From NCBI GenBank assembly GCA_028870355.1, contig JAGWPU010000075.1, forward strand, positions 2,350 to 66,349: a stretch of DNA of 64,000 bases. The letters run 5' to 3'. Positions 3,392 through 62,672 of this stretch are shown piece after piece. The position numbers were made by a program, and so were the translations under genes. The notes under the pieces were generated by a model, which did no database searches, had not been told where the DNA came from, and saw only the letters and a list, made by a program, of their open reading frames with translations. Each line of letters begins with the position of its first letter. The stretch's first letter is position 1. The stretch comes from Gammaproteobacteria bacterium (GTDB lineage Bacteria > Pseudomonadota > Gammaproteobacteria > Steroidobacterales > Steroidobacteraceae).

Positions 3392-3492
3392 GGTCGACCT
3401 CTCCCTTGCGCGGGCCGGCCGGTCGCCGGCGAATCGCCGCTAGTGAATCGCGTCGACGGCGGAAAGGAAAGACCCGGCGCCCGGCCGCGATC

Positions 3493-4803
3493 TCATCGCG
3501 CCTCGATCCGCATCAGAAGGTCGGACCGCAGGCGATAATTGATCCGCGCCTCGATCCGCGGGGCCTCGTCGCCGATCGGCGTCAGGCGGAACCGCCGGGT
3601 CATCACCGCGAGGTGCGTCGCCATCTCGAAGGTCGCGAGCGCCTCGCCGATGCAATGTCGCGGCCCGACGCCGAACGGGAGATAGACGAACCGGTGGCGC
3701 GCCGCCTCCGCCGCCGCATCGAAGCGCGATGGATCGAAGCGCTCCGGATCCAGCCAATGCGCGGGATGCCGGTGCATGAAGTAGGGGCTGATGAACACGT
3801 CGGTCGCCGAGGGCAGTGCAATCCCGTGCAGAACGTCCGGGGCGACCGTCCGCCGGGTCATCATCCAGCCCGGCGGACACAGTCTCAGGGACTCCTTGAT
3901 CACCTGCTGGCCGAGGACCCATTCTTCGAGGCCCTCGAGACCGAGCGTCGCCAGATCCGGCAATCCCGGGGTCGATGCGGCGAGCTGTTCCTGGATCTCG
4001 GGGTGCCGGCCGAGCAGGTACCAGGTCCAGGTCAGCGCCGACGCGGTCGTCTCGTGTCCCGCGACGACCAGCGTGATCAGTTCGTCGATCAGTTGCCGGT
4101 CGCTCATGCGTTCGCCGGTGTCCTTGTCCTCCGCCTCGAGCGCCATCTCGAAGAAATCGAACCGCTTCTCCGCCGGGTTCGCCCGACGACGGTCGATCAA
4201 TTCCTGCAGGATCGTGCCGAGGGATCGGATCCGGTACGCGAATTTCAGGTCCCGATCCGCCTCCGTGTGCACGATGGAGAACGGGTTCTCGCCGAAGCGC
4301 TCTCGAATCAACGCCAGATCGTCGCCGAAGATCGCACGCAGATTGATGTCGAGGGTCAGCTCGCTCGCCGCCTCGGTCACGTTCAGCGGCTCGCCGCGGC
4401 GCGCGACCGTCGCCCAGCGCAACGCGTATTCCTCGTTGGTCTGCGCGATCGCGCCGCCGAATCCGGACAACACCCGCCGGTGGAACGCGGGCTGCAACAT
4501 CCGGCGCTGCCGTTGCCAGTGATCGCCGCTGCTCGTCATGATGCCCCGGCCCAGCAGGATCGAGATCTGGTCCGTGCCGACTCCCTTGACGTAGTTGCGA
4601 TGATTGGTGAGCAGCACGCGCTTCACCGCCTCCGGGTCGTTCACGACGTAGCTATAGGTGCGGCGACGCGGCGAATACACGCGAAAGAAATCGCCGTAGA
4701 CCGGCAGCCAATCGCGGATCCTGGTGAGGGTTTCCTCGGACGCGCCGAGATCGAACGACTCGGGCGGCTCCGGCACGGGGACTGGGGCGCCAGGGGAGTG
4801 CAT
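3493..4803 (-). CDS. Cytochrome P450 monooxygenase
   Basis: Starts at Met216 of ORF 3493..5448 (436 aa). I-helix AGHETT, ExxR (ESLR), PERFDPSRF and heme-thiolate loop FGVGPRHCIG. The part of the ORF upstream of Met216 is Arg/Gly-rich junk. Confidence 0.9.
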   Translation of the reverse strand: MHSPGAPVPVPEPPESFDLGASEETLTRIRDWLPVYGDFFRVYSPRRRTYSYVVNDPEAVKRVLLTNHRNYVKGVGTDQISILLGRGIMTSSGDHWQRQRRMLQPAFHRRVLSGFGGAIAQTNEEYALRWATVARRGEPLNVTEAASELTLDINLRAIFGDDLALIRERFGENPFSIVHTEADRDLKFAYRIRSLGTILQELIDRRRANPAEKRFDFFEMALEAEDKDTGERMSDRQLIDELITLVVAGHETTASALTWTWYLLGRHPEIQEQLAASTPGLPDLATLGLEGLEEWVLGQQVIKESLRLCPPGWMMTRRTVAPDVLHGIALPSATDVFISPYFMHRHPAHWLDPERFDPSRFDAAAEAARHRFVYLPFGVGPRHCIGEALATFEMATHLAVMTRRFRLTPIGDEAPRIEARINYRLRSDLLMRIEAR

Positions 4804-5459: not shown

Positions 5460-5622
5460 CGGCGCGTCGTCAAAGCGCCATCGTGGGCTCACCACAATGG
5501 ATGCCTCGCGGTTCGACCGACCCCGTGCGGATTTCGCGCGGCCTGGTACGCACCGCCGCGCACCGGCGACCCCGGGCGCCGGGATGGGAATTCCGTCAAC
5601 TCAGACATCCAGGGAGACACCA

Positions 5623-8328
5623 TTGAACAGCAGAATGAAGCTCGGTCTCGCGATCGCGGCGATCCTCGGCGGCAGCACGGTGAACGCCTTTGCCGCGACC
5701 GATCCGGGCCCGTCCGAGCGCACTGCGGCGGCTTCGGATTCCGTGTCGAGCTCCGCGCTCCAGGAAGTCGTCGTGACCGCGCAACGTCGCGCGCAATCGG
5801 TCCAGGACGTGCCGATCACGATTCAGGCGATCACCGGTGCGCAGCTCAACCAACTCAGCGTGACGACCTTCGACGACGTGCTGAAATATCTGCCGAACGT
5901 GACCTTCGGGTCGAACGGGCCGGGCCAGGGCAGCATCTTCATGCGCGGGATGAGCGCGGGCTTCGCGGGCAACCAGTCGAGCGCGACTTTCGCCTCGTTT
6001 CCGAACGTCGCGACCTACCTCGACGACCAGTCGCTGCAGTTCCCGGCGCGCAATCTCGACGTCTACCTGGTGGACATGCAGCGCATCGAGGTGCTCGAGG
6101 GTCCGCAGGGCACGCTGTTCGGCGGCGGTGCCGAAGCCGGTGCGATTCGCTACATCACGAACAAGCCGGTGCTCGACCGGACCGAGGGCGTGACCGAGGC
6201 GAGTTACGGCGTGACCGCGCACGGCGATCCGAACCACGCGCTGAGCGCGGTGCTGAACGCACCGTTGATCGCGCACAAGCTCGCGGCCCGCGTGGTGATC
6301 TACGACGATAGGCGCGGCGGCTACATCACCAACGTGCCGAGCACCTTCACGCGCAGCAACAACGATACCGGCAACTACTACGGCGGCGTTCGTCCGGGCG
6401 CGACCGGCTTGTGCCCGAACGGCTTGCCGACCCACACTGGCTTCTGCGTGCCGGCGTCGAACCAGATTGCGAACAACTACGCGATCGCGGGGCGCGCGTC
6501 GAATCCGGTCCAGTACGGCGGTGCCCGCGCGGAGCTGCTCTACCAGATCGACGACGACTGGAGCGCGTTGATCACGCAGAGCTACCAGGACATGGAAGCC
6601 GATGGCCTGTCGACGCAATATCCGATCGGCTCGGACGGGCAGACGCTCGGACCCTGGGAGGTCACTGCGTTCGTGCCGGCGGTGAACAAGGACCGCTTCG
6701 AGAACACCGCGTTCACGCTGAACGGCAAGCTCGGCGCGCTGCACGCCGTGTACACCGCCGGCTACCTCGTGCGTCACATCGACCAGACCAACGATTACTC
6801 GAACTACACGCGCAGCGCCTACGGCTTCTACTACACCTGCAGCGGCGGCTCGGGTTTCGGCTCCGGGACCCCGTCCTCGACGGTGCCGACCTGCTATTCC
6901 CCGATCACGTCCTGGCACGACCAGGTGAAGAACACCCACCTGAGCAACGAGTTCCGCCTCAGCACGCCGAGCAACTGGCGGACCCGCGGGATCGTCGGGC
7001 TGTTCTGGGAGGATTTCGAGATCTACGACAACATGAACTTCCTGTACAAGACGATTCCGTCGTGCACGCCGACGAACCTCGCGAACGCGCTCGCGGGCGG
7101 CTTGCCGTGCGTCGGTAACGTCGGCCCGCTGCCGGGCGCGTACGCGTCGGACCCGAGCGTGCGCAACGACAACGTCGCGTTCGGCGAGGACATTCGCCGC
7201 GGCTACAAACAGACCGCGGTGTTCGCGTCGATGGACTACGACATCGTCCCGAAGGTGCTGACGATCACCGGCGGTGCCCGCTACTACCGCTACAGCGAAG
7301 ACGAGGTGGGCTCGAAGTACACGTCCCCGCTCGCCTGCGCCGACGTCGCCAACGGTTGCTATGCGGGCACGACCAGCATCAATGCCGAACACGAGAACGC
7401 GGTCTACACGGGCGTCAAGGGCCGCGCGAACATCACCTGGCACGTGACCCCGGACATCATGGTCTACTACACGTTCTCGCAGGGATTTCGCCCGGGCGGC
7501 TTCAACCGTACCGTCGCGAACAAGGCGAAGGATGCGAATGGCGTGCCGCAATACTCCTCGCCGCTCAGCTACAAGCCCGACTCGCTGACCAACAATGAGA
7601 TCGGCTGGAAGGCCGAGGTATTCGGCCATCACCTCCTGCTGAACGGCTCGTTCTATCGGATGGACTGGAACGACGTGCAGTTCGCGCTATTCGATCCGAC
7701 GATCCTCGGCAACACCACCTTCGTCGTGAACGGCCCGAACTACCGGATCGACGGCTTCGAACTGCAATTCGTCGCGAAACTCCCCGGCGGATTCACGCTG
7801 CAGGGATCGGGCTCCTGGAACAGCGCGAACCAGTCCTCGTCGCCCTGCCTGATCGACAATTACGCGAGCTCGTCCGGGGTGAAGTCGCCGAATTTCGGCC
7901 AATGCATCACCGAGGTCAAAGGGTCCCCGTTCCCGAACCCGTTCGGCGCGCTGAACACCCGTCCCGCGTTCTCGCCGCCGCAGGAGTTCAACCTCCGCGT
8001 GCGCTACGACTGGGACTACGAGGCGTATCGGGGCTTCGTGATGATCGGTGCGAACCACATCGGACACATGACCAACGAGCCGGCGAGCTTCGTGAACGGC
8101 GATACGGTGCAGGTTCCGTACACGACCTGGCTGAAGTACGATCAGCCGGGGTACACGACCTACGACGGCTCGGTCGGCATCGCGAAGGGCGCCTGGACCG
8201 CGCAGGTGTACGGACAGAACCTGTCCAATTCGGACGCGAGTTTGTTCACCTCCTCGTCCCAGTTCATCAAGTCCGAGGTCCCCCTGCGGCCCCGGGTGAT
8301 CGGCGTCAAGATCGGTTACCGCTTCTGA
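5623..8328 (+). CDS. TonB-dependent outer-membrane receptor (pair 1)
   Basis: ORF 5497..8328. SD AGGGAG lies 6 nt before TTG 5623; ATG 5635 is an alternative start. Signal peptide ends STVNAFA. Plug motifs VVVTAQRRAQSVQDVPI, RIEVLEGPQGTLFGGG and IRYITNKP. C-terminal beta-signal KIGYRF-stop. Confidence 0.9.
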   Translation: MNSRMKLGLAIAAILGGSTVNAFAATDPGPSERTAAASDSVSSSALQEVVVTAQRRAQSVQDVPITIQAITGAQLNQLSVTTFDDVLKYLPNVTFGSNGPGQGSIFMRGMSAGFAGNQSSATFASFPNVATYLDDQSLQFPARNLDVYLVDMQRIEVLEGPQGTLFGGGAEAGAIRYITNKPVLDRTEGVTEASYGVTAHGDPNHALSAVLNAPLIAHKLAARVVIYDDRRGGYITNVPSTFTRSNNDTGNYYGGVRPGATGLCPNGLPTHTGFCVPASNQIANNYAIAGRASNPVQYGGARAELLYQIDDDWSALITQSYQDMEADGLSTQYPIGSDGQTLGPWEVTAFVPAVNKDRFENTAFTLNGKLGALHAVYTAGYLVRHIDQTNDYSNYTRSAYGFYYTCSGGSGFGSGTPSSTVPTCYSPITSWHDQVKNTHLSNEFRLSTPSNWRTRGIVGLFWEDFEIYDNMNFLYKTIPSCTPTNLANALAGGLPCVGNVGPLPGAYASDPSVRNDNVAFGEDIRRGYKQTAVFASMDYDIVPKVLTITGGARYYRYSEDEVGSKYTSPLACADVANGCYAGTTSINAEHENAVYTGVKGRANITWHVTPDIMVYYTFSQGFRPGGFNRTVANKAKDANGVPQYSSPLSYKPDSLTNNEIGWKAEVFGHHLLLNGSFYRMDWNDVQFALFDPTILGNTTFVVNGPNYRIDGFELQFVAKLPGGFTLQGSGSWNSANQSSSPCLIDNYASSSGVKSPNFGQCITEVKGSPFPNPFGALNTRPAFSPPQEFNLRVRYDWDYEAYRGFVMIGANHIGHMTNEPASFVNGDTVQVPYTTWLKYDQPGYTTYDGSVGIAKGAWTAQVYGQNLSNSDASLFTSSSQFIKSEVPLRPRVIGVKIGYRF

Positions 8329-8366
8329 ACACCGGTCCCGGCAACCCGATCACTTCGGCTAGAATC

Positions 8367-8392
8367 GGCGGCGGGCCTCCCGGCCCGCCGCC
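8367..8392 (+). terminator. GC-rich stem-loop GGCGGCGGGCC-tccc-GGCCCGCCGCC between TBDR1 and sulfotransferase 1 (possible partial terminator or mRNA-stability element)
   Basis: Perfect 11-bp inverted repeat with a 4-nt loop, read directly. There is no U-tract after it. Confidence 0.35.
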
Positions 8393-8410
8393 TGCCGCTT
8401 GCGGAGTCGC

Positions 8411-10459
8411 ATGATGTCAGCCGCCGCCGAACCCGCCCTGTCGCCCCCGGAGGAACCGCGGGTCGAGCGTGAAGTGCGGCGCATCCGCGACCTCACCCGG
8501 GGTGGCGAGCACGCGCGAGCGCTGCGGGCTGCCGAAGCCCTCGCGGCGACGGTTCCCGAGAATCGCGACGTGCTGTATGCACTCGCATTCAGCCAGCGGC
8601 ACCTGCAGGACACCGCCGCCGCGCTCGCGACGCTCGAGCGGCTCGAACGCGTGCATCCGCACTTCAGTCGCCTGCACGAAGAACGCGGACTGTGCTACGT
8701 GGCGCTGCGGGATGCGCCGCGCGCGATCGCCTCTTTGCTGCAGGCGGTCAACCTGAACCCAGCGCTCCCCAACAGCTGGGCGATGCTCGAGAAGCTCTGG
8801 CGGATCGGCGGCGATCGCGCGAGCGCCGACACGGCGGCGGAACACGTCGCCACCCTGGGTCGCCTCGCGCCGGAGGTGGTGCGCGCGACCTCGCTGTTCG
8901 CCGATCGAGACCTCGGTCCGGCGGAAGCCCTGGTGCGCGCGCGCCTGCGACACCAGGGTGACGACGTCGAGGCGATGCGCCTGCTCGCGCGGATCGGCAT
9001 CGCGCGTCATGTCCTCGACGACGCCGAACTGTTGCTCGAGGCCGTGCTCGACCTCGCGCCCACGTATCGTGCGGCCCGCCACGATCATGCGTTCGTGCTG
9101 GTCGAGCGCCACAAGTACCGCGAGGCACGCGCGCAACTCGAGCGCCTGCTGGCGGAGGACCCACGGCATCGCGGCTACCGCGCGCTGTTCGCGGCCACCT
9201 GCGTCGGGCTCGGCGAGCAGGCTCGCGCGATCGACCTGTACCGCGAACTGCTCGGGGAGACGCCCCAATCGGCCGACCTGCTGCTCTCGCTCGCCCATGT
9301 GCTGAAGACCGTCGGGGATCGCGACGCGGCGGTCGCGGCCTACCGCGCCGCCGCGGCGGCGCGCCCGGAATTTGGCGACGCCTACTGGAGCCTTGCGAAT
9401 CTCAAGACGTATCGATTCGAGGAGGGCGAGGTCGTGCGCATGCGCACGCTCGAGGCCCGGGTCGACCTCGGCGCCGACGATCGGATCCATCTGTGTTTCG
9501 CGCTCGGCAAAGCGCTCGAGGATCGTGCGAACCATGCCGACTCCTGGCGCTACTACGAGCGCGGCAACGCGCTGAAGCGCGCCACGAGCGGATACCGCCC
9601 CGAGGTGATCGAGAGCAATACCCGGGGCCAGATCGCGGTGTGTACGCGCGAATTCTTCACGGCCCGCGCCGGATGGGGTGCGGGCGACCGCTCGCCGATC
9701 TTCATCGTCGGTCTGCCGCGGTCCGGTTCGACCTTGATCGAGCAGATCCTCGCATCGCATTCCGCGGTCGAGGGGACCGAGGAGCTCGCCGACGTCCACC
9801 GGATCGTGCTCGAACTGCAGGGCCGGGAGCCGAACCCCGACGACCCGCGCTACCCCCGCGTGCTCTCCACGATGACCGCGGCCGAGTTCCGCCGACTCGG
9901 CGAGCGCTACCTGACCGACACCCTACCGTACCGTACCGGCCGGCCGCACTTCATCGACAAGATGCCGAACAACTTCCGTCACATCGGCCTGATCCACCTC
10001 ATGCTGCCGAACGCGAAGGTCATCGATGCGCGGCGCGAGCCGATGGCCTGTTGCTTCGGCAATCTCAAGCAGTTGTTCGCGAACGGGCAGGAATTCAGCT
10101 ATTCGATCGACGACATCGCGCGCTACTATCGCACCTACCTGGAACTGATGCGCCACTGGGACGCGGTGCTGCCGGGCAAGGTCCTGCGCGTACTGCACGA
10201 AGAGGTGGTCGAGGATCTCGAGGGCAGTGCGCGGCGCATCCTCGATTTCTGCGAATTGCCGTTCGAGACGGCGTGCCTCGAGTTCTACCGGAGCGGACGC
10301 AGCGTACGGACGCCGAGTGCCGAGCAGGTTCGAAGGCCGATCTACCGCGATGGCTTGAATCAATGGAAGCACTACGAACCGTGGCTCGACGCCCTGCGCG
10401 ATGCGCTCGGAGACGCGCTGACCCGGTATCGCGAACCCGTCGCCGGACATCCCCTGTGA
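8411..10459 (+). CDS. TPR-repeat protein with C-terminal PAPS-type sulfotransferase domain (pair 1)
   Basis: ORF 8399..10459. GGAG lies 4 nt before ATG 8411. The N-terminal ~400 aa are TPR-like helical repeats. The C-terminal domain has GLPRSGSTL (5'-PSB loop), IDKMPNNF, IDARREPMACCF (3'-PB-like RRxP) and VRTPSAEQVRRPIY. No signal peptide. Confidence 0.85.
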   Translation: MMSAAAEPALSPPEEPRVEREVRRIRDLTRGGEHARALRAAEALAATVPENRDVLYALAFSQRHLQDTAAALATLERLERVHPHFSRLHEERGLCYVALRDAPRAIASLLQAVNLNPALPNSWAMLEKLWRIGGDRASADTAAEHVATLGRLAPEVVRATSLFADRDLGPAEALVRARLRHQGDDVEAMRLLARIGIARHVLDDAELLLEAVLDLAPTYRAARHDHAFVLVERHKYREARAQLERLLAEDPRHRGYRALFAATCVGLGEQARAIDLYRELLGETPQSADLLLSLAHVLKTVGDRDAAVAAYRAAAAARPEFGDAYWSLANLKTYRFEEGEVVRMRTLEARVDLGADDRIHLCFALGKALEDRANHADSWRYYERGNALKRATSGYRPEVIESNTRGQIAVCTREFFTARAGWGAGDRSPIFIVGLPRSGSTLIEQILASHSAVEGTEELADVHRIVLELQGREPNPDDPRYPRVLSTMTAAEFRRLGERYLTDTLPYRTGRPHFIDKMPNNFRHIGLIHLMLPNAKVIDARREPMACCFGNLKQLFANGQEFSYSIDDIARYYRTYLELMRHWDAVLPGKVLRVLHEEVVEDLEGSARRILDFCELPFETACLEFYRSGRSVRTPSAEQVRRPIYRDGLNQWKHYEPWLDALRDALGDALTRYREPVAGHPL

Positions 10460-10479
10460 TCGATGAGGAACCCGTATCC

Positions 10480-11283
10480 GTGAATCTCGCACACCATTTC
10501 GACCTCGTGATCTTCGATTGGGCCGGAACGACCGTGGATTTCGGCTGCCGCGCACCGGTCGACGCGCTGCTGGAGGCGTTCCGGCAGCACGGCGTCGCCC
10601 TGACCGAACCCCAGGTCCGCCGCGACATGGGCAAGGCGAAGGCCGACCACGTGCGCGCGCTGCTCGGGGAGCCCGAAGTCGCCGCCGCGTGGACCGCGGC
10701 GAACGGCGCGCCGGCGAGCGCCGCCGACTGCGATGCCCTGGTACGCGAACTCGGCCCACTGATGCGCGAGCGCGCGGGTCGAACGGCGACGCTGATCGAC
10801 GGCATGGTGGAGACGGCCGCGGCGCTGCGCGCGGCGGGGCTGCGGATCGCCTCGTCGACCGGCTACACGCGCGAGATGATGGCGCCGGTGCTCGAACGCG
10901 CCGCGGCGCAAGGGTACGCTCCCGAGCACCTGGTGTGTTCCGGAGAGACGCCGCAGGGACGGCCGAGCCCGCTGATGATCTACAAGGCCTGCGCCGAACT
11001 CGGCGTCTGGCCGCTGAGTCGCGTCGTCAAGGTCGACGATTCCGAGGCGGGCGTCGCCGAAGGCGATGCCGCCGGCTGCCTGAGCGTCGGTGTCGCGGCA
11101 TCCGGGAACGGGGTCGGTCTCGCGGCGCCGGTCCTCGAGGGATTGCCGGCCGTCGAACGACGCGCCCGGATCGACGCGGCGGCCCGCGCGCTCTATGCGG
11201 CCGGTGCCGACATCGTGATCGACACGGTCGCCGACCTGGTGCCGGCGATCGAACGGCATCTTCGCATCGGCCGAGGTCGCTGA
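10480..11283 (+). CDS. phnX: Phosphonoacetaldehyde hydrolase (phosphonatase)
   Basis: 267 aa from GTG 10480, with GAGGA 10 nt upstream. An alternative GTG at 10456 overlaps the sulfotransferase stop as GTGA. HAD motif I is [14 protein letters not shown], followed by SSTGYTR and [12 protein letters not shown]. The overall layout matches PhnX as I recall it. Confidence 0.85.
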
Positions 11284-11285
11284 GC

Positions 11286-12395
11286 ATGTCCGACGCCGTG
11301 CTGCTGACGCCGGGTCCGCTGACGACCGAGGCCGAAGTGAAGGCCGCGATGCAGGTCGACTGGGGCTCCTGGGACGGCGCGTTCAACGACCTGACCGCGT
11401 CCGTCTGCCGGGACCTCGTCGCGATCGTCGGTGCCGAGCGCGATCACGACTGCGTGCCGCTGCAAGGCAGCGGCACCTTCGCGGTCGAGGCGGCACTCGG
11501 AACACTGGTGCCGAGGAGTGGCAAGGTCCTGGTGCCCGACAACGGCGCGTACTGCCAGCGGATCGCGCGCATCCTCGGCTGCCTCGGCCGCGAAGCGCGG
11601 GTGATGCCGTTTGCCGAGGACGCCGCGGTGGACCCCGACCGGATCGACGCCGCGCTCTCGACCGATCCCGCGATCACCCACGTCGCGCTCGTGCACTGCG
11701 AGACCAGCACCGGCATCCTGAATCCGCTCGAGGCCATCGGCGCCGTGGTCGCCGCCCATGGGCGTCGGTTGATCGTCGATGCGATGAGTTCCTTCGGCGC
11801 ACTGCCGATCGACGCCCGCACGCTCGCGTTCGACGCATTGATTGCCGCATCCGGAAAATGTCTCGAGGGCGTTCCGGGGATGGGCTTCGTGATCGCACGT
11901 CGCGACGTGCTCGATGGCAGCACGGGCCAGGCGCATTCGCTCGCACTCGACCTCGCCGATCAGTGGCAGTACCTGCGCAGGACCGGACAGTGGCGGTTCA
12001 CGCCGCCGACACACGTCGTCGCCGCGCTGCGGGTCGCGATCGATCGCTACCGTACGCAGGGTGGGCAGGCGGCGAGGCTCGCCCGCTACGCCGGGAACTG
12101 CGCGGCCCTGCTCGACGGCATGCGCGCACTCGGCTTTGCGCCGTTCCTGCCGCGGCATCTGCAGGCGCCGATCATCGTCACGTTCCATTCGCCGCCGGAT
12201 CCGGCCTACGACTTCGGACAATTCTATCGGCGCGTGCGCGAACGGGGATTCGTCCTGTACCCGGGGAAGCTGACCCGGGTCGAAACCTTCCGGGTCGGCT
12301 GCATCGGCGCAATCGATGCGGCGACGCTGCGCCGCGCGGTGGAGGCCATCGGCGCGACGGTTCGCGAGATGGGCATCCGACGAATCGCGCCATGA
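11286..12395 (+). CDS. phnW: 2-aminoethylphosphonate--pyruvate transaminase
   Basis: 369 aa. N-terminus [14 protein letters not shown] and PLP-lysine region [15 protein letters not shown] are typical of class V aminotransferases of the PhnW type. It starts 2 nt after the phnX stop. Confidence 0.9.
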
Positions 12396-16245: not shown

Positions 16246-17198
<953 letters not shown>

Positions 17199-17202
<4 letters not shown>

Positions 17203-17474
17203 CGGCGCAGGTACTGGTGCACGATCTCGATCAGGTCCTCGGCCGCCTCGGCCCGACCCGCGCCGCGACTCTCGTCGGCCATATGCTCGCGGATGTGATC
17301 CTCGATCACCTCGGCGATGAAGCCGTCGAGCGCGCCGCGGCACGCGGTCGCCTGCTGCAGCACGTTCGCGCACTCCTCGTCCGCTTCGACCGCACGCTGG
17401 ATTCCCTCGAGCTGGCCGCGCAAACGCTTCAGCCGGTTGAGCAACTTGGTCTTTTCGCTCGCCACGTGCCCCAT
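17199..17474 (-). CDS. CsoR/RcnR/FrmR-family (DUF156) metal-sensing repressor with RcnR-type H-C-H-H fingerprint
   Basis: 91 aa from MGHVASEKTKLLNRLKRLRGQLEGIQRAV. The fingerprint residues are His3, Cys35, His60 and His64, which is the Ni/Co-sensor RcnR/DmeR pattern. Confidence 0.85.
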
Positions 17475-18962: not shown

Positions 18963-20414
18963 TCACGCGGTCGATTCGGCCACCGCGGCTTCTTCGCGAA
19001 TTCGCCGCCACGCGGCCGCGACGTGCCGCTCCTCGGTGCGCGTCTGACCGACGCACAGCCGCAGGGTCAGCTTCCCGTCGAGCTTGGTGTGGGTGAGGTA
19101 GAGATCGCCGCTCGCATTCAACGCGTCGAGGAGTCGTTGGTTCGCGGCGTCGCCGCTGCGCAAGCGGAAGCACACGAGATTCAGGGGCGCCGGCGCCGCG
19201 AGCTCGAAACGCTCGTCCTCGCGGACCCAGGCGACGACGCGCTGCGCGAGGCGCACGTGTTCGCGCACATGGTGCTGCAAACCCTCGATCCCGTAGTGAC
19301 GAATCACGAACCACAGCTTGAGCGCGCGGAAGCGCCGGCCGAGCGGTACCTGCCAGTCCCGATAGTCGATCACCGCACCCGACTCGGTCGCCTTGTTGCG
19401 CAGATATTCCGGCAGGACCGACAGCGTCTCGATCAGGTGCTTGCGATCCGCGACGTAGAAACAGTCGCAGTCGAAATTCGTGAACATCCACTTGTGCGGG
19501 TTGAAGCAATAGCTGTCGGCGAGCTCGACGCCGTCGTGCAGGTACCGGAACTCCGGGCACAACGCGGCGGTGCCGCACATCGCCGCGTCGACGTGCAGCC
19601 AAAGACCGCGCTCGCGGCAGATCCGCCCGATCTCCCGGACCGGATCGATCGCGGTCGAGGACGTCGTGCCGACCGTCGCGCAGACGAAGCTCGGCACCAG
19701 CCCGGCCGCCTCGTCCGCGGCGATGCGCTGCGCGAGCGCGTCGGCGCGCATCGCGAATCGCTCGTCGACCTCGATCGATCGCAAGTGCTCCGCGCCGATT
19801 CCGACGATCTTCGCCGCCTTTTCGACCGACGAGTGCGTCTGCGTCGAACAATAGGCGACGAGCCGGCCGTCGACACCGCGTCGATTGCTCGCGAAACGCG
19901 TTGCGCGCTCGCGCGCCGCGAGCAACGCGCACAGGGTCGCGCTCGACGCCGAATCCTGGATCACGCCGCCGCCGGCACTCGCCGACGAAAAGCGCTCCGG
20001 CAGCCCGAGCATCGGCACGAGCCAGTCGAGCACCTGCGTTTCGAGCTCGGTGCAGGCGGGGCTCGTCGACCAGAGCATCCCCTGAACACCGAGCCCCGCC
20101 GCGAGCAGTTCCCCGAGGATCGCCGGACCGGACGAGTTCGCCGGAAAGTACGCGAAGAAGTTCGGCGACTGCCAGTGGGTGATTCCCGGCAGGATCAGCC
20201 GCTCGACGTCCGCGAGCACGGCATCGAAGGACTCGCCCTGAATCGGCGCGTTCTTCGGCAGCTGCGCGCGCAGCTCGCCGGGTTTGGCGCGCGACAGCAC
20301 CGGCAGGCGCTCGACGCGCTCCAGATAATCGGCGATCCAGTCGACGACCGCGTACCCCTGACGCCGAAAGTCGTCCGGGGACAGGTGATAGGACTTCTCG
20401 TCGGACATGGTCAC
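18963..20414 (-). CDS. Aromatic-L-amino-acid decarboxylase family (group II PLP-dependent decarboxylase)
   Basis: Full ORF, 483 aa (Met3 is an alternative start). HWQSPNFFAYFPANSS, TQTHSSVEKAA, HVDAAMCGTAA and the PLP-lysine motif CFNPHKW. Confidence 0.9.
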   Translation of the reverse strand: MTMSDEKSYHLSPDDFRRQGYAVVDWIADYLERVERLPVLSRAKPGELRAQLPKNAPIQGESFDAVLADVERLILPGITHWQSPNFFAYFPANSSGPAILGELLAAGLGVQGMLWSTSPACTELETQVLDWLVPMLGLPERFSSASAGGGVIQDSASSATLCALLAARERATRFASNRRGVDGRLVAYCSTQTHSSVEKAAKIVGIGAEHLRSIEVDERFAMRADALAQRIAADEAAGLVPSFVCATVGTTSSTAIDPVREIGRICRERGLWLHVDAAMCGTAALCPEFRYLHDGVELADSYCFNPHKWMFTNFDCDCFYVADRKHLIETLSVLPEYLRNKATESGAVIDYRDWQVPLGRRFRALKLWFVIRHYGIEGLQHHVREHVRLAQRVVAWVREDERFELAAPAPLNLVCFRLRSGDAANQRLLDALNASGDLYLTHTKLDGKLTLRLCVGQTRTEERHVAAAWRRIREEAAVAESTA

Positions 20415-20456
20415 GCCGTCCGTGATTCGTTGCGCGGCCGATGCGCCGCGGGCGAG

Positions 20457-20720
20457 TTATTGCAGCCCGCAGAACCCGCCGCCGCAGCCGCCGGAACCGC
20501 AGGCCGGCGCACCACATCCGACGTCGGTCGGCGCGGCGCTTGCGGAGCCGATGTAGCCCGCGGAGATCAATTTCTCGACCGGCGTCCGCGGATCCGTCTT
20601 GCCGGGCGCAATACCGGCCCGTTCGCACAGCTCGCCCCAGGTCTTCATGCGCTCGTCCATCTTGTGGCGCACTTCGACCACGCGACCGTTGCTCGCACAC
20701 TGGTATTCGTAGGTAGGCAT
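20457..20720 (-). CDS. FmdB-like small protein with degenerate zinc ribbon and C-terminal C-x4-C-x4-C-x4-C tail
   Basis: Starts at Met39 of ORF 20457..20834 (87 aa). It has the family-typical MPTYEYQC N-terminus, but only one Cys from each expected CxxC pair remains. The tail reads CGAPACGSGGCGGGFCGLQ. Confidence 0.6.
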   Translation of the reverse strand: MPTYEYQCASNGRVVEVRHKMDERMKTWGELCERAGIAPGKTDPRTPVEKLISAGYIGSASAAPTDVGCGAPACGSGGCGGGFCGLQ

Positions 20721-20871
20721 CGTCCGAACGTCCTCGACATCCCGAACCGTGATCGTCCCGCAGGCCGCGCGGGATCCGGCCGAAGTATAACCCGAGCCGC
20801 TCGCGCGGCGGATGTGGTAAGGTCCCCGAAGCAACGCGCGCCCACGTTCCGCGCGCGGGAAGAGTCATCCG

Positions 20872-21765
20872 ATGCAGCCGCGAGATCGCGAGGTCCGTTG
20901 CCTGCGACGCGACGCGGACCGACCGCGTGCGGCGGGCGGTGGGCGCGTGCCGCAACTGGCGGTCGCGGTCGACGACCCGCGGCGCCTGCGGGCGGCGGTC
21001 GCCGCCGCGCAGGCTCGTCGTGAGTCCTTCGACACCGCCCCCGCGACCCATTGGTACTTCGGCAGCGAGTTCTGCGAGCACTTGTTCCCGTCGCGCACCG
21101 CCCTGCAACGGGCCGTCGCGGCAGCCGACCGCGACGGATTGACCCTGGTGCTGATGACGCCGGTCGCGAACGACGCGCTGGTCGAGCGGATCGAGGCGAG
21201 CGCGAGCGCGCTGCCACGATCTGCGGAAATCGTCGTGAACGACTGGGGCGTCGCCCACCGGCTGCGCACCGCCGATCCGGATCGGACCCTGGTCGCCGGC
21301 CGCCAGCTCGCGAAGACGATCAAGGATCCGCGCCTGCCCTCGCCCGCATGGCTCGCGCCCTTTTCAGGCGGCTATGCGAACGGCGCGTTTCATCGCCTGC
21401 TGCAGCGGTTGCGCATCGAGCGGCTCGAGCTCGACGTGCCGCCGTTCGCGACCGCGTCCGCGTTCGACGTCGACGGCTTCGCGGTGTCGGTCTGGGCGCC
21501 GTACGGCTACGCCGCGAAAGGCCGCATCTGCAAGATCGGCTCGTCGAGCCGGGCGCGCGCGACGAAGTTCTCGCCAGGTGGCCGTTGCCGCCGCGAGTGT
21601 CGCCGGGTGAGCGAGATCGACGCCGACCCGCCCGCATCGGGCGCGACGGCGGTCGCGCAGATCGGCAATACGCTGCTCTACCGGCACGGGGACACCGAAA
21701 CGGCCGCGGTGCGCGCCGGTGTCGACGCCGGCCGGATCGACCGGCTCGTCGTCACCGAGGACTGA
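20872..21765 (+). CDS. U32-family (UbiV-like) protein of unknown function
   Basis: ORF of 297 aa; GTG 20947 is a possible alternative start. It is colinear with the UbiV encoded at 48053..48958: YFGSEFCEHLFPS vs YLGEVVCSKRES, EIVVNDWGVAHRL vs LLVEANDVACLDVL, and the Cys pattern C-x18-C-x3-C vs C-x12-C-x3-C. Confidence 0.6.
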   Translation: MQPRDREVRCLRRDADRPRAAGGGRVPQLAVAVDDPRRLRAAVAAAQARRESFDTAPATHWYFGSEFCEHLFPSRTALQRAVAAADRDGLTLVLMTPVANDALVERIEASASALPRSAEIVVNDWGVAHRLRTADPDRTLVAGRQLAKTIKDPRLPSPAWLAPFSGGYANGAFHRLLQRLRIERLELDVPPFATASAFDVDGFAVSVWAPYGYAAKGRICKIGSSSRARATKFSPGGRCRRECRRVSEIDADPPASGATAVAQIGNTLLYRHGDTETAAVRAGVDAGRIDRLVVTED

Positions 21766-21769
21766 CCGC

Positions 21770-22780
21770 TTGAAAGTGACCGCGCCGATCAGCCGCCTGG
21801 AGGAGATCGAGCGTCTCGCCGCCGCCGGCGTCGACGAGATCTATTGCGGCGTGGTTCCGGACGAGTGGATCGCGCGGTTCAACAGCGGCGCGGTCAATCG
21901 GCGGCTCTTCGGCAATCTACGCGGCCTCGACGCGCTGCGCGAGGCGATCGATCTCGCCCATCGACACGACCGGTCGTTGTTCCTCGTGCTGAACGCCCCG
22001 CACTACGGCGCCGCACACCAGCGCGCGCTGCTCGATCTCGCGCGACGTTTCCGCGATGACGGCGGCGACGCCGTGATCGTCGCGGATGCCGGCTTGGTCG
22101 CGGAGCTGCACGAACGAGTGCCGGATTTGCGGGTGCATCTCAGCTCGGTCGCCGGCTGCCGCAATTCCGCAGCCGTCGAATTCTACCGGGAACTCGGCGT
22201 GCACCGGGTGATCCTGCCGCGCGACATCACGCTCGGGGAGATCGCGGCGATCTGCGCGAACGCGCATGGCGTCGAGATCGAAGCGTTCGTGCTGAACGAC
22301 GGTTGCGTGTTCGAGGAAGGGCTGTGTCACTCGATTCACCTGCCGACCAGTCTCGGCGGCCCGATTTGCCTCGATCGACGTGCGCAGCGATACGTCGGCA
22401 GGCACGACCGGGAGATCCCGGCGCGCCTGCGGGCCGAACTCGACGCCAACGACGCCGACTACCGCGACTGGCTCTGGTACCGCTTCGGCTGCGGCTTCGC
22501 GACGACCCCGGACGGTCACCCGTACGGCCCCTGCGGGCTTTGCGCCGTACCCGAGCTGGCCGCCGCGGGGCTCGCGTCGGTGAAGATCGCGGGCCGCGAG
22601 CGCTCGACGGCCCAGAAGGTCGCGAGCGTTCGCATGGTGCGCGCGGTCGTCGACCGCACACTGCGCCGGGAGGACCGCGAGGCCGTGCGGCGTCACGCGG
22701 TCTCGATCCGCGGCGTCGAAGACCGGTGCCGCGCCGGCTACATGTGCTACTACCCGGAAGTGCGCGCGGGCGTCGTCTGA
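21770..22780 (+). CDS. Peptidase U32-family (UbiU-like) protein of unknown function
   Basis: Starts at TTG 21770 (GAGGA 8 nt upstream; GTG 21776 is an alternative) in ORF 21719..22780. VDEIYCGVV, DAVIVADAGL, GVHRVILPRDITL, NDGCVFEEGLCHS (same C-x6-C as UbiU SEGRCFLSSYLCG), YGPCGLCAV and SVKIAGRERS. Confidence 0.8.
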   Translation: MKVTAPISRLEEIERLAAAGVDEIYCGVVPDEWIARFNSGAVNRRLFGNLRGLDALREAIDLAHRHDRSLFLVLNAPHYGAAHQRALLDLARRFRDDGGDAVIVADAGLVAELHERVPDLRVHLSSVAGCRNSAAVEFYRELGVHRVILPRDITLGEIAAICANAHGVEIEAFVLNDGCVFEEGLCHSIHLPTSLGGPICLDRRAQRYVGRHDREIPARLRAELDANDADYRDWLWYRFGCGFATTPDGHPYGPCGLCAVPELAAAGLASVKIAGRERSTAQKVASVRMVRAVVDRTLRREDREAVRRHAVSIRGVEDRCRAGYMCYYPEVRAGVV

Positions 22781-23617: not shown

Positions 23618-25009
23618 TCAATTCGGCGGCGCCCCGGTGCTCGCGACCGCGGGCGTCGCCGTCTCCGTCGGTTCCTTCAGCCCAAGAGCCTCTGCATACA
23701 CCGATCGGTGGCGCAGCACGCTGCCGACGACCGAAGCGAGCACGCAGGCCGGCATCGCGACCATCACGACGTTGTAGTTCCCCGTCATTTCGAACACCAG
23801 GATCGCGGACATTGCCGGCGCATGGGTGGTGGCCGCGAGAAGACTCCCCATCCCGACGAGCGCCCACAAGGTCTGTGAGTGACTCGCCGCGGGCACCAGC
23901 CATCCGTGCGCGACGATCAAGCCCATCGCGCCGCCGAGCGTGAGCGTCGGCGTGAGCACCCCACCCGGGATCCCCGCGGCGCTCGCCGCGGTGACGGCGA
24001 TCAGGCGCGTCGCGAGCACCGCCGCGACGCCCGACAGCGTCCACGGATCGACGAGGAAGGACTGCACCACGCTGTAGCCGTTGCCCCAGACCTCGGGACG
24101 CAGCAGCGACAGCAGCCCGATCAGGATCCCGGCGAGGCCCATGCGCAGCGGTAGCGAGCTCATGCGCGCCTGATAGGCCCGGCGCGACGCGTCGAGTAGC
24201 CACAGGAACGCCGGACCGATCACGCCCGCGAGCACGCCGAGCAGACAGCCGTCCAGCAGGTCGACGAAGCTCGCCGCTGGCACGCGGTGTGCTGCATAGA
24301 GCGGGCCGATCACGAACAGGCTCTGGGTGGTCAGTTCGCCGATGACCGCCGCGACGAGCACCGCGGCGATCTCGCGCAGTTCCAGCCCACCGAGGATGAT
24401 CTCGGCGACGAACAGCGTGCCGGCGATCGGCGCGTGGTAGGCCCCCGCGAAGCCGGCTGCCGCACCGCAGGCGACGACCAGGCGCTGATGCTCCATGCTC
24501 GCGCGGCCGGCACGCCCGATCAACGAGGAGATCAGGGCCGCGAACTGGATCATCGTCCCTTCACGACCGATCGTGATACCGCCGCTGACCGCGAGCAAGG
24601 ACGACCCGGTGCGGACCAGGTTCGGCACCAGCGGCAGCCGCCCGTCGCCGACCCGGACCGCCTCCATGTACTCAGGCCCGCGAGGCCGCTTGATCCAACG
24701 ATGTGCGGCCCACATCACGGAGCCGCCCGCGAGGGCCGCGAGCGCCGGGATCAGCACGCGCTCCCACGGCGGCAAGGCCGCCGCCGCGGCGACGAGATGC
24801 GCCTCGTGGGTGTAAAGACTCATCAACGCCCGCATCGCCGCCCGGAAGCCCTCGACCGCGACCGCACTGACGAAGCCGACGAGCGCGCCAAGCAGCAACA
24901 ACGGGACCATCGGGTCGAGTCCCGTGCGCAAGCGGGTCGAGAACGCGGCCAGTCGCGCGCGGCTCGGCGCACCGGGACGCAGATGCCGCAGCAGGACGGG
25001 CGGGCGCAT
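23618..25009 (-). CDS. ClC-family chloride channel/antiporter homologue (non-canonical selectivity motifs)
   Basis: Full ORF, 463 aa. GREGT replaces GREGP. GAAAGFAGAYHAPIAGTLFVAEI and IPGGVLTPTL are present. No GSGIP motif is recognisable. Confidence 0.8.
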   Translation of the reverse strand: MRPPVLLRHLRPGAPSRARLAAFSTRLRTGLDPMVPLLLLGALVGFVSAVAVEGFRAAMRALMSLYTHEAHLVAAAAALPPWERVLIPALAALAGGSVMWAAHRWIKRPRGPEYMEAVRVGDGRLPLVPNLVRTGSSLLAVSGGITIGREGTMIQFAALISSLIGRAGRASMEHQRLVVACGAAAGFAGAYHAPIAGTLFVAEIILGGLELREIAAVLVAAVIGELTTQSLFVIGPLYAAHRVPAASFVDLLDGCLLGVLAGVIGPAFLWLLDASRRAYQARMSSLPLRMGLAGILIGLLSLLRPEVWGNGYSVVQSFLVDPWTLSGVAAVLATRLIAVTAASAAGIPGGVLTPTLTLGGAMGLIVAHGWLVPAASHSQTLWALVGMGSLLAATTHAPAMSAILVFEMTGNYNVVMVAMPACVLASVVGSVLRHRSVYAEALGLKEPTETATPAVASTGAPPN

Positions 25010-48052: not shown

Positions 48053-48958
48053 TCAACTCCAGGTCATGCCCGCGTGGCCGCGGACGAAGCCGTTGATCAG
48101 CGGCCGCCCGGCGAGCATCGCGCGCAGTTCGGCGGCGACCGCGGCCGGCTCGCGCTGGCGATCCAGGAGTTCGCGGTAGCGCGTGGCGACGCGCACCATG
48201 TCGAGATCGTGCGGCGAGAGTCGGAAATAGCCGACGCCGGATTCGCGCAGGCGCTCGATCTCGTCGAGGAGGACCCCGTACCCGTACGACAGGGTCTGCG
48301 TTCCGTTGATCGTGAGCACGTCCTCGCCGGCCATGCTGGTCGCGGTCAGACCGTCCGCATCGAGACCGCAGACGAGCTGGCAATGGTCCTTCGACAGGTT
48401 GTGCGATCGCGCGTGATAGCAGCGCATCGCGACCGACAGCGGCTGGCGCCCGAACGCCTGGACCTCGATCGCGGTCGCGCCCGCACCCGCTGCGATCGTG
48501 CGGATCGAGGCCTCGGGCAGTTCCACCGGCAACGCGATGCGGATCGCGCCCTGCGAGGCGAGGACGTCGCGCGTGCGCTCGTTGATCACGTTGATGTACG
48601 GCCCGACCACGTGCGGGGCGCCGGCGAGCACGTCGAGGCAGGCGACGTCGTTCGCCTCGACGAGGAGCCCGTGCTCGGCGCTCTCGCGCAAGCGGCGGAC
48701 CTCGCGCGGCGTGGTCACGAGCGCGAGCGTCGAATGCACGACCGTCTTGCCCGCCGCCTGCAGGCGACGCACCGCCTCGTCGAGATACGGGTCGAACGCG
48801 CTTTCGCGCTTCGAGCACACGACCTCGCCGAGATACACGGTGTCGACCGGCGCTTCATCGGCGATGCGAAGATAGAAGTCCCGACGCTTCGCCGCGGGCC
48901 AATGGAACAACAAGGGCCCGAGCGTCAGCCGGGCCGGCGCGATCGCGCTCATTTCCAT
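48053..48958 (-). CDS. ubiV: U32-family ubiquinone biosynthesis protein UbiV
   Basis: Full ORF, 301 aa. Met3 at 48952 would give an ATGA overlap with ubiU. LGPLLFHWP, YLGEVVCSKRES, HSTLALV, AMRCYHARS...DHCQLVCG and INGTQTLSYGY are colinear with E. coli YhbV as recalled. Confidence 0.85.
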   Translation of the reverse strand: MEMSAIAPARLTLGPLLFHWPAAKRRDFYLRIADEAPVDTVYLGEVVCSKRESAFDPYLDEAVRRLQAAGKTVVHSTLALVTTPREVRRLRESAEHGLLVEANDVACLDVLAGAPHVVGPYINVINERTRDVLASQGAIRIALPVELPEASIRTIAAGAGATAIEVQAFGRQPLSVAMRCYHARSHNLSKDHCQLVCGLDADGLTATSMAGEDVLTINGTQTLSYGYGVLLDEIERLRESGVGYFRLSPHDLDMVRVATRYRELLDRQREPAAVAAELRAMLAGRPLINGFVRGHAGMTWS

Positions 48959-49947
48959 CCCTTCCGGTACGCGCCGAAGGTCTCCCGCCCACCCTCAGCC
49001 TCCTGGCGCAGCGTCGACAGCAGCGGCTCGACCGCGTGGCCACGGGCGAGCGCATCGAGCGCCTGACGAAAGGTGCCGACCACCTGCGTCACGTACGCGC
49101 GGCTGCGCTGACGCCCCTCGATCTTCAGGGCGGTGACACCCGCGGCGCGCAACTCCGGCAGGATCGCGAGCGCGTTCAGTGCGACCGGCTCCTCGAACAG
49201 GTACGAGGCGCGTCCGTGCGTGAGGTAGCGACCCTTGCAGGGCGTCGGGTACGCGGCGGGCTCGCCCGGCGCGAACGCGTTCAGCGTGACCGGTCCGAGC
49301 TTCGACAGCACCCGGCCGTCGCTCTCGACGTAGCTCACGTGGTTCGCGGGCGCACAGGCGCCCTCGCTGGTCGGCGACACGCCGCACAGATAGGACGACA
49401 GGAAGCAGCGCCCCTCGGACATCGGACCCACGCTGCCGAATGCGAACACTTCCGTCTCGATCCCGGTCTCCTCGACGAGGGCGCTCACCTCGTCGATCGA
49501 CAGCACGCGCGGCAGCACGACGCGCTTGACGCCGAAGTGGTCGCGGTAATAGCGAATCGACGGCGCGTTCGCGGCCGACGCCTGCACGGACAGGTGGCGG
49601 CGCAGCTGCGGATGGGTGCGCGTCGCATAGTCGAGCAGGCCGATGTCGGCCAGGATCACCGCGTCGGCGCCGGCGTCGGCGGCTCGATCGACCGCGAGGC
49701 ACCAGGGGCCCGTGTCGCCGGCGGGCGGGAAGGTATTGATCGCGACGAGCACCTTGCAGCCGCGGCCGTGCGCATACGCGATCCCTTCGGCGAGTTCCTC
49801 CGGATCGAAGTTGAGCCCCGGATAGTTGCGCGCATTGGTGCGATCGCGAAAGCCGCAGTAGACGCTGTCCGCGCCCGCATCGACCGCGGCCCGCAGCGCC
49901 GCCGGCGTGCCCGCTGGACACACGAGTTCGAGGGTTCCCGCGCTCAT
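48949..49947 (-). CDS. ubiU: U32-family ubiquinone biosynthesis protein UbiU
   Basis: Full ORF, 332 aa. Close colinearity with E. coli YhbU as recalled: LELVCPAG, TNARNYPGLNF, HLSVQASA, VVLPRVLSI, EVFAFGS, SEGRCFLSSYLCG, YPTPCKGRY, LKIEGRQRS and GAYRKGWK. Confidence 0.9.
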   Translation of the reverse strand: MSAGTLELVCPAGTPAALRAAVDAGADSVYCGFRDRTNARNYPGLNFDPEELAEGIAYAHGRGCKVLVAINTFPPAGDTGPWCLAVDRAADAGADAVILADIGLLDYATRTHPQLRRHLSVQASAANAPSIRYYRDHFGVKRVVLPRVLSIDEVSALVEETGIETEVFAFGSVGPMSEGRCFLSSYLCGVSPTSEGACAPANHVSYVESDGRVLSKLGPVTLNAFAPGEPAAYPTPCKGRYLTHGRASYLFEEPVALNALAILPELRAAGVTALKIEGRQRSRAYVTQVVGTFRQALDALARGHAVEPLLSTLRQEAEGGRETFGAYRKGWK

Positions 49948-50714
49948 GCCGACTTCTCGTCGCGACGCTTCTGCCGTGCCTCGAACTGCGCGAGGCGCGC
50001 GGTCAGGGCAGCGATCTCGGACCGATGCCGGTCGATCTCGGCGCGGAACATCGCGCTCGCGTCCTGCTCCCGCGGATGCAGTACCCGGTGCGCGGCCGAG
50101 ACGCGCTCGAGGAGCGCTTCGACCCAGCCGTTGAGCCGCCGGGCGATCGCCCGCGACGCGGGTGCGAACCGTCCGAGCACGCGCGCGAGCTCGTCGGCGA
50201 GCAGGAGCGGTTCCCGATCGAGCACGTTGCGCAGGCCGACGACCACGGCGGTGTTGCCGGAGACGATCAGGTCGCGGCGGAAGAACAGGGAATCGCTGTC
50301 GATCCGTCCCTCGAGCAGGTCCACGAGCACGCGGGTACTCGCACGGATCGTCGCATCCGCGCCGTGCGCCTCGCGCGCGATCACGCCGAGCCGCGCCGGC
50401 TCGCGCCCGAACGCGAGCGCGAAGCCGTACGGCAGGTCGTTCGGGATCACGTGCACGACCGCCGGGTCGAGCGCGAGGAGATTGCGGGGCAAGCGGGGAT
50501 GCGCTCGCTCGACACTGCGCAGCACGGCCACGGCGACCGCGTGCGCGACCGAACGCGGCAGCCAGATCGCACCGAACTGCAGCAGCGCGAGCGGTGTGCC
50601 GTCGGCCTCGATCGCCGTCGGCGGCGCGCCCGCCAGGACCGGCAGCGCGTGACCGAGGTCCTCGAGATCTTGGTGAGTCTGCATAGATCCGACGCAGTAT
50701 GCCGGGTCGGACAA
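49944..50714 (-). CDS. ubiT: SCP2-domain ubiquinone biosynthesis accessory protein UbiT, with C-terminal extension
   Basis: ORF of 256 aa (Met11 at 50684 is an alternative start). SCP2-type core DLLEGRIDSDSLFFRRDLIVSGNTAVVVGLRNVLD. ATGA overlap with ubiU. The extra C-terminal ~65 aa are rich in charged and heptad-like residues. Confidence 0.75.
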   Translation of the reverse strand: MSDPAYCVGSMQTHQDLEDLGHALPVLAGAPPTAIEADGTPLALLQFGAIWLPRSVAHAVAVAVLRSVERAHPRLPRNLLALDPAVVHVIPNDLPYGFALAFGREPARLGVIAREAHGADATIRASTRVLVDLLEGRIDSDSLFFRRDLIVSGNTAVVVGLRNVLDREPLLLADELARVLGRFAPASRAIARRLNGWVEALLERVSAAHRVLHPREQDASAMFRAEIDRHRSEIAALTARLAQFEARQKRRDEKSA

Positions 50715-62506: not shown

Positions 62507-62577
62507 CCCCTGCTCGTTGTTCGCCCGGCGACTCGCACCGGTCGCTGATCGGGCCATGCTCCTACCCTTCGCGGCGG

Positions 62578-62585: not shown

Positions 62586-62672
62586 TGTCGGGCGGTATCG
62601 GTGTGCGCCTGCCGGCCTTGTGCGCTAATCGCACACTCGCTCGTCGACACGCGCGCGGCGAACGCCGCCGGA

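Follow-up and report, generated by a model that had tools for sequence, protein, structure and literature searches.

What does a second pair of U32 proteins do in a genome that already encodes the canonical proteins for O2-independent ubiquinone hydroxylation? This question was raised by a 64,000-nt stretch of DNA (~69% G+C; hereafter, the window) from contig JAGWPU010000075.1, in which two adjacent genes, here called A and B, had been predicted from the sequence to encode a V-like and then a U-like U32 protein. Gene A (20872..21765, + strand) encodes 297 aa and gene B (21770..22780, + strand) encodes 336 aa, and an open reading frame (ORF) check bore out the second pair, its coordinates, and the 4-nt gap that separates the stop codon of A from the start of B. 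The two are the frames with high G+C at third codon positions (GC3) at the locus, with a GC3 of 0.88 for A, and B starts with a TTG codon preceded 11-15 nt upstream by a GAGGA motif within the 3' end of A. NCBI records contain proteins identical to A and B from a metagenome-assembled "Gammaproteobacteria bacterium" (locus tag KGL36_06430), with the protein identical to B also being 336 aa long. The canonical ubiT-ubiU-ubiV cluster that the original prediction had placed at 48053..50714 was equally well supported, with each product exceeding its NCBIfam equivalog cutoff: ubiT (49944..50714, - strand) at 61.1 bits against 46.9, ubiU (48949..49947, - strand) at 488.5 bits against 440, and ubiV (48053..48958, - strand) at 332.9 bits against 275. 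The A-B pair is a system additional to these genes.

We compared both proteins with family models and with characterized U32 proteins. B matched the U32 model PF01136 with 140.1 bits (9e-41, cutoff 22.4) and reached 108.3 bits against the UbiU equivalog, far below its cutoff of 440, while A gave no match to the UbiV equivalog (cutoff 275). B is 29% identical to the UbiU of the same window, 25-29% identical to UbiU proteins overall, and 22-23% identical to TrhP and RlhA. When the B family was placed in a neighbor-joining tree with UbiU, TrhP, and RlhA, as had been proposed with the prediction, it fell outside all three as a clade of its own; the B family and UbiU were each monophyletic in 60/60 bootstraps. 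These results agree with the earlier view that the pair is not a redundant copy of UbiU and UbiV. NCBIfam (June 2026) held no model specific to either A or B, and twelve U32 subfamilies have been described, most of them uncharacterized (PMC10990095). A-B is a distinct, so far unnamed U32 pair family, and it could not be mapped onto the published U32 subfamily names.

The cysteine motifs of B were consistent with its relationship to UbiU. The motif C179-X6-C186-X13-C200 was present in 78/78 family members and aligned with the cluster ligands C169, C176, and C193 of Escherichia coli UbiU. The C-x6-C that had been noted in B (CVFEEGLC) is therefore real, but it aligns with C169/C176 of E. coli UbiU and not, as had been supposed, with CFLSSYLC of the window UbiU, from which it is shifted by one Cys. 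At the position of the fourth UbiU ligand, C232, a Cys was found in 64 of the 78 B proteins and an Asn in Aromatoleum; the fourth cluster ligand of B is probably C255 or C258. These two residues (a CxxC, in PCGLC) were invariant, as were C320 and C326 (a C-terminal Cx5C, in C..G.MCYYPE), bringing the invariant Cys of B to seven; the four residues have no counterpart in UbiU and might together provide an additional metal or Fe-S site.

Protein A was more difficult to place, since no Pfam or NCBIfam model matched it. Its homologs fell into ~127 clusters, none of which had a Pfam domain and which were named "hypothetical" wherever the source gave a name. Nevertheless, C68, C220, C239, and C243 were invariant in 78/78 family members, giving a C-Xn-C-X18-C-X3-C pattern, so the Cys patterns of the U32 Fe-S type that had been recognized in the window proteins are kept throughout both families. 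When hhalign was used to compare the A family with an alignment of 47 UbiV sequences, the probability was 83.6% (E 8.2e-6), and both the first Cys and the CX3C fell in register; comparison with a B/UbiU profile gave 83.2% (E 8.8e-6), and, as a yardstick, UbiV against B/UbiU gave 97.8%. Because hidden Markov model (HMM) profile-to-sequence searches of the A family against UbiV or B were marginal (best E 0.008-0.05 at Z = 1000), the connection of A to UbiV and B comes from profile-profile comparison. Of the statement that both proteins are U32 proteins, the half concerning B thus stands on a model match, while A is joined to the superfamily by this comparison and not by any model. An AlphaFold2 model of A (predicted local distance difference test 82, predicted template modeling score 0.83) showed alternating beta and alpha elements, and Foldseek searches of the PDB with this model returned generic TIM barrels, such as chitinases and xylanases, at template modeling (TM) scores of ~0.4. 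A PDB sequence search with the A and B/UbiU profiles found no match, so no structure of a U32 catalytic domain was available for comparison. Taken together, these comparisons make A a far-diverged partner of the UbiV type and B a U32 protein that resembles UbiU but belongs to a clade of its own. The pair is predicted to bind [4Fe-4S] clusters and to form an A-B heterodimer; what is directly seen is the tight coupling of the genes, by a 4-nt gap or by overlaps.

If the pair does not belong to ubiquinone biosynthesis, with which genes does it travel? A scan of one genome per species identified 301 loci with a relative of A, the best 80 of which were fetched, giving 83 loci in all with those collected earlier. 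B followed A in the 83 loci wherever the contig continued. In the 58 of 83 loci with at least 7 kb of sequence upstream of A, qhp genes were found near the pair in 42, and at least three qhp genes were found in 40. The gene order qhpA-qhpD-qhpC-qhpB-qhpF-qhpE-A-B was seen in Aromatoleum evansii and on a Rhodocyclaceae contig, with the pair at the operon end, A overlapping qhpE by 1-4 nt and B lying within 1-2 nt of A. These operons encode the dihaem alpha subunit (qhpA) and the gamma subunit (qhpC) of quinohemoprotein amine dehydrogenase (QHNDH), a radical SAM protein (qhpD), an ABC exporter (qhpF), and an S8 peptidase (qhpE). Hosts of the pair included many species of Thauera as well as Aromatoleum, Herminiimonas, Glaciimonas, Janthinobacterium, Sedimenticola, Motiliproteus, and Halopseudomonas. 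The qhp operon is the normal genomic home of the A-B family. Judged by this linkage, the aromatic substrate would be a peptidyl Trp within the gamma subunit QhpC.

Eight further loci lacked this arrangement and carried a module of a ~2100-aa sensor kinase, a 452-aa protein, and an aldehyde dehydrogenase that is elsewhere seen with qhp. The sensor (L087:457-6828) has Ser/Thr kinase, AAA, GAF, HisKA, and receiver domains, and the 452-aa protein (L087:7025-8383) is conserved and has no Pfam match. The kinase/452-aa module occurs together with the aldehyde dehydrogenase, the pair, and qhp genes in Rhodocyclaceae, Motiliproteus, and Halopseudomonas (L032, L038, L065, L067, and others), and the two proteins may be further parts of an amine-utilization system. 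The homologs of the QhpD encoded at L008:1604-3031 also separated sharply into two groups, 76 clusters being at least 59% identical and the next ~50% identical. QhpD proteins from contigs that equal pair-bearing contigs in length fall in the high group, which suggests a QhpD subclade co-evolving with the A-B pair.

A UbiT homolog was found near the pair in 1/83 loci (L033), where it was part of an adjacent canonical ubiTUV cluster. The V-like-then-U-like gene order, the absence of a UbiT/SCP2 partner, and the strong divergence from the canonical pair, all of which had been pointed out for the window, were borne out. In L033, an alphaproteobacterial MAG (metagenome-assembled genome), ubiT-ubiU-ubiV (70-2518, - strand) lies divergently beside A-B (2691-4602, + strand). 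A dodecin gene was observed ~145 bp after B in two Rhodocyclaceae loci (L003:10032-10265 and L004:3938-4171), and a near-identical dodecin gene lies downstream of the pair in L011:12086-12316.

In canonical operons, Trp43 of the gamma-subunit precursor, once crosslinked, is dihydroxylated by QhpG, with both oxygen atoms coming from O2 (PMC7876137), and we asked how qhpG and the pair are distributed across qhp operons. A QhpG reference was recovered from two annotated plasmids and checked against PDB 7CTQ, "peptidyl tryptophan dihydroxylase" (1.8e-153). Only 8 of the 42 qhp-linked pair loci had a QhpG homolog in their flanks. By comparison, among 26 qhpC-bearing control plasmids, mostly from Paracoccus and Leisingera, 22 carried a QhpG homolog and none (0/26) carried a B-family protein, and no B-family member was found in the plasmid collection. 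This contrast gave a Fisher p of 1.4e-7, a value that is uncorrected for phylogeny and applies to flanks of ~10 kb. An alphaproteobacterial chromosomal locus likewise had QhpG and lacked the pair. A-B and qhpG are thus complementary in their distribution across qhp operons, with A-B usually occupying the place of QhpG.

The two systems do coexist in some operons. In Sedimenticola (L050), qhpG (8560-9723) lies directly between qhpE and A-B (9866-11735) in one operon, while in the Thauera-type operon a QhpG homolog is located upstream of qhpA (5' ends of L038, L041, L043, L045, and L066). Such operons would bring oxygen-dependent and oxygen-independent routes together, an arrangement that resembles the presence of UbiI/H/F alongside UbiU/V. 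The QhpC proteins of pair-linked operons retained Cys7, Cys27, Cys37, Cys41, and Trp43. Since the crosslinking Cys and Trp43 are kept, the hydroxylation step is still needed.

What is known of U32 proteins makes the pair a plausible catalyst for this step. In the UbiU-UbiV heterodimer each subunit binds a [4Fe-4S] cluster, through the motifs CX6CX16CX38C and CXnCX12CX3C, and the heterodimer is needed to hydroxylate a single aromatic ring three times without O2 (PMC6747719). Prephenate is the oxygen donor in the O2-independent ubiquinone pathway, and the U32 members with a known role are all tied to O2-independent hydroxylation (PMC10990095). The invariant motifs of A and B match the UbiU/UbiV type, and O2-independent ring hydroxylation chemistry therefore fits. 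With somewhat better than even confidence, we infer that A-B serves the formation of the cysteine tryptophylquinone (CTQ) cofactor by hydroxylating a peptidyl tryptophan without O2. Our confidence is higher that the pair has a role of some kind in QHNDH maturation, and it is lower that the window copy acts on QhpC in this particular genome. Of the original suggestion of an O2-independent hydroxylase for a different aromatic substrate, the enzymatic part remains the best reading, while its possible link to the decarboxylase is not supported; the neighbors of the family indicate the peptidyl Trp of QhpC as the substrate rather than a free aromatic amino acid or amine.

According to this proposal, A and B would be the two subunits of a UbiV-like/UbiU-like Fe-S U32 enzyme. 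The complex would meet the QhpC precursor in the cytoplasm, probably while QhpC is held by the radical SAM crosslinker QhpD, and would hydroxylate the indole ring of Trp43 without O2, the step that QhpG performs with O2. If UbiU-UbiV, TrhP, and RlhA are a guide, prephenate would supply the oxygen atom, and the [4Fe-4S] clusters would take electrons away. Modified QhpC would then be exported by QhpF, trimmed by QhpE, and matured to CTQ, with A-B replacing or complementing QhpG. In the window, where the pair is split from qhp genes, it would presumably act in trans on a QhpC encoded elsewhere. We regard it as an even chance that this is the first way found of making a protein-derived quinone cofactor without O2, with a U32 heterodimer hydroxylating the QhpC Trp from an organic donor such as prephenate.

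The window copy itself gave mixed indications. In a tree of A and B combined, the window A-B clade was nested in the betaproteobacterial, qhp-linked part of the family, and the window proteins keep 34/37 (A) and 84/87 (B) of the positions that are at least 95% conserved in qhp-linked members, so that the enzyme looks intact and unchanged. Nevertheless, several findings weigh against the proposal that the pair hydroxylates QhpC. A span of ~80 kb around the window copy was examined for qhp genes, and none was found by tblastn over the 64-kb window, in the 10 kb beyond its left end, or in the ~6 kb beyond its right end in contigs encoding identical proteins; a search for QhpD homologs also gave no copy attributable to this MAG, the sole "Gammaproteobacteria" match coming from another assembly. 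The U32 homology of A is moderately supported (hhalign ~84%), and its predicted structure matches generic TIM barrels only. About 8 of the 58 well-flanked loci lie in heterogeneous contexts unrelated to qhp, whose neighbors include a short-chain dehydrogenase/reductase, a polyamine-type ABC transporter, a PAS kinase, topoisomerase IV, DUF5703, Aminotran_5, MAPEG, and a CoA-transferase, and no recurring partner was found among these contexts in other lineages. The absence of qhpG was judged within ~10 kb only, and accessory genes can sit elsewhere: one 490-kb contig carries qhpA-D-C-B-F (L100:8411-14583) with no qhpE, qhpG, or pair within 10 kb. This cluster therefore indicates that maturation genes can be unlinked from the structural genes. 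Finally, catalysis is a prediction for every member of the A-B family.

The hosts bear on the same issue in both directions. QHNDH reportedly takes part in anaerobic amine degradation in Aromatoleum, to judge by the title of a 2019 study by Schmitt et al. that PMC11231019 cites. Against an anaerobic function, some hosts whose operons have the pair only (Herminiimonas, Glaciimonas, and Janthinobacterium) are not known as anaerobes.

The linkage to qhp establishes a role in the QHNDH system without singling out the step, so the pair could act in maturation other than as a Trp hydroxylase. It could transfer electrons to QhpD through its Fe-S clusters, form the Cys37-Trp43 crosslink, catalyze the oxidation that yields the quinone, or serve as a peptidase or chaperone on QhpC. 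The three to four invariant Cys of B that lie beyond the UbiU motif (the CxxC and Cx5C) would suit such roles as a possible extra redox or metal site, and U32 proteins have historically been named collagenase-type peptidases. Canonical operons, however, work with the same QhpD, QhpE, and QhpF and without the pair, the leader peptidase gene qhpE is still present beside A, and the gene that is present in canonical operons and missing from most pair-linked ones is specifically qhpG. Together with the uniform association of characterized U32 proteins with O2-independent hydroxylation (PMC10990095), these observations make a different maturation step unlikely, and peptidyl-tryptophan hydroxylation remains the preferred reading.

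A second alternative concerns the window lineage, in which the pair, off the qhp operon, might hydroxylate a free aromatic amino acid or amine together with the adjacent decarboxylase, with or without the small FmdB-like protein encoded between them. The decarboxylase (18963..20414, - strand; Pyridoxal_deC, 1e-125) is a genuine tyrosine/DOPA-type enzyme: it scored 419.8 bits against PF00282 over profile positions 1-375, and its nearest PDB sequences were 6EEI, a plant tyrosine decarboxylase (1.4e-154), and 1JS3, a DOPA decarboxylase (5e-148), with 9DUI also matched. We classify it as a group II pyridoxal phosphate (PLP)-dependent aromatic L-amino-acid decarboxylase with a predicted substrate preference. 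The intergenic spacer between the FmdB-like gene and gene A (20721..20871, 151 bp), across which the two sides are divergently transcribed, is ~85% conserved among the close relatives of the window and joins the decarboxylase side to the pair in all window-clade members. The failure to find qhp genes in the ~80 kb examined would also suit a function of this kind.

The neighborhood-conservation check did not sustain the functional tie to these two genes that had been envisaged, however. The order OprB-decarboxylase-FmdB-A-B-BaxI recurred only in relatives whose A proteins are 72-78% identical and that are colinear over ~20 kb, and this shared order therefore reflects inherited synteny and gives no independent sign of a functional link; we rejected the decarboxylase/FmdB linkage as functional evidence. 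The retention of 34/37 and 84/87 conserved positions gave no sign of an altered active site. The decarboxylase can equally be connected with QHNDH, since its amine products are typical QHNDH-type substrates, a possible indirect link that we infer from the enzyme classes. Hydroxylation of a free amino acid or amine is thus quite improbable, and we continue to favor the Trp43 of QhpC as the target. In addition, the small Cys/Gly-rich protein (20457..20720, - strand, 87 aa, starting MPTYEYQC), which had been called FmdB-like, falls short of the models for FmdB zinc ribbons: it scored 23.7 and 24.5 bits against the cutoffs of 31.3 and 34.4 for Zn_ribbon_8 (PF09723) and TIGR02605, the match covered residues 1-24 only, and instead of two CxxC knuckles it has degenerate sequences with a single Cys each (QCASNG and ELCERAG). 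The 151-bp spacer and its surroundings yielded no FNR/ANR-type box, no consensus sigma-70 promoter, no terminator above chance, and no Rfam element.

That the pair instead duplicates or backs up UbiU/UbiV in anaerobic ubiquinone biosynthesis is very improbable, for although it shares the design of two genes for two Fe-S proteins and B is 29% identical to the window UbiU, B scored 108 bits where the UbiU cutoff is 440, and A did not match UbiV while the canonical genes passed, the B family formed a separate clade in 60/60 bootstraps, UbiT lay near the pair in 1/83 loci as part of a neighboring canonical ubiTUV, and the family is tied to qhp operons rather than to ubi genes.

Several features of the window lie apart from the pair. 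A gene for a CLC-type chloride channel (23618-25009, - strand) is located between the BaxI-like and phosphoenolpyruvate synthase-like genes; L088 and L089, although colinear with the window in other respects, have no such gene at the matching position, which indicates a lineage-specific insertion or loss. The product of 16246-17373 (- strand) is a cation diffusion facilitator (CDF)-type efflux protein in which a conspicuous (Asp-His)5(Gly-His)3 stretch lies close to the N-terminus; in L088 and L089 a CsoR/RcnR-type repressor gene (Trns_repr_metal) directly adjoins the efflux gene. Three paralogous gene pairs (5497-10459, + strand; 36711-41401, - strand; and 59993-63956, - strand) each encode a TonB-dependent receptor and a ~680-aa protein with TPR repeats and a sulfotransferase domain, and the same pairing occurs on the flanking contigs L091 and L095. 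The MAG GCA_021780395.1 contains both L095, which encodes proteins identical to those of the window, and L088, whose A protein is only 77% identical; this bin may be mixed or may hold two related strains.

The routes to tryptophylquinones described so far all depend on O2 or H2O2 (QhpG, LodB/GoxB, and MauG; PMC11951088, PMC7876137), and these three are the only tryptophylquinone-forming enzymes in a 2025 review (PMC11951088). A U32 pair embedded in qhp operons offers a concrete answer to how CTQ could be formed without O2. If this is true, denitrifiers and anaerobes could build CTQ and oxidize amines without any O2, the reach of U32 hydroxylases would extend from lipids and RNA to protein substrates, prephenate-type hydroxylation chemistry would be broadened, and an uncharacterized U32 group would be given a function. 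Our full-text literature search returned nothing tying QHNDH, tryptophylquinone, or QhpG to U32, collagenase, or PrtC, and neither the qhp link nor a U32-type O2-independent hydroxylase with a probable protein substrate is described in the searchable literature. The main value of the analysis is this family-level link to anaerobic CTQ biogenesis, which comes with a specific prediction; the annotation of A, which is listed as "hypothetical" without a family model, can be corrected at once.

How does the A-B pair compare with the systems that it resembles? Like UbiU-UbiV (YhbU-YhbV), it is encoded by two adjacent, translationally coupled genes, it combines one typical U32 partner with a CX6C...C motif and a shorter protein in which a long stretch separates the first Cys from a downstream C-Xn-C-X3-C group, and it is presumed to hydroxylate one aromatic ring repeatedly without O2. 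Unlike UbiU-UbiV, its genes are ordered V-like then U-like and have no UbiT/SCP2 partner. A has X18 where UbiV has X12 and goes undetected by Pfam and NCBIfam, while B differs from UbiU in its extra invariant Cys, its 25-29% identity, and its own clade. By model cutoffs, clade placement, and UbiT partnership alike, A-B falls outside UbiU/UbiV. Its genomic partner is the qhp operon, implying a protein substrate instead of a prenylated phenol.

With QhpG the pair shares its operon and its position in the operon logic, being encoded with QhpC, QhpD, QhpE, and QhpF, and the reaction proposed for it is that of QhpG: two hydroxyl groups would be added, in the cytoplasm, to Trp43 of crosslinked QhpC. 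However, QhpG is a flavoprotein (FAD) whose fold and cofactor are unrelated to those of an Fe-S TIM-barrel pair, and QhpG needs O2, whereas A-B is predicted to be O2-independent. The relationship between A-B and QhpG would thus be one of functional analogy and not of homology. TrhP (YegQ) and RlhA (YdcP), which are required for the O2-independent hydroxylation of tRNA U34 and 23S rRNA C2501, resemble A-B in having a U32 domain and a motif of four conserved Cys, and they target part of a macromolecule rather than a small molecule, as A-B is proposed to do. In contrast with A-B, each consists of one polypeptide chain that has a U32 C-terminal domain, and their substrates are RNAs.

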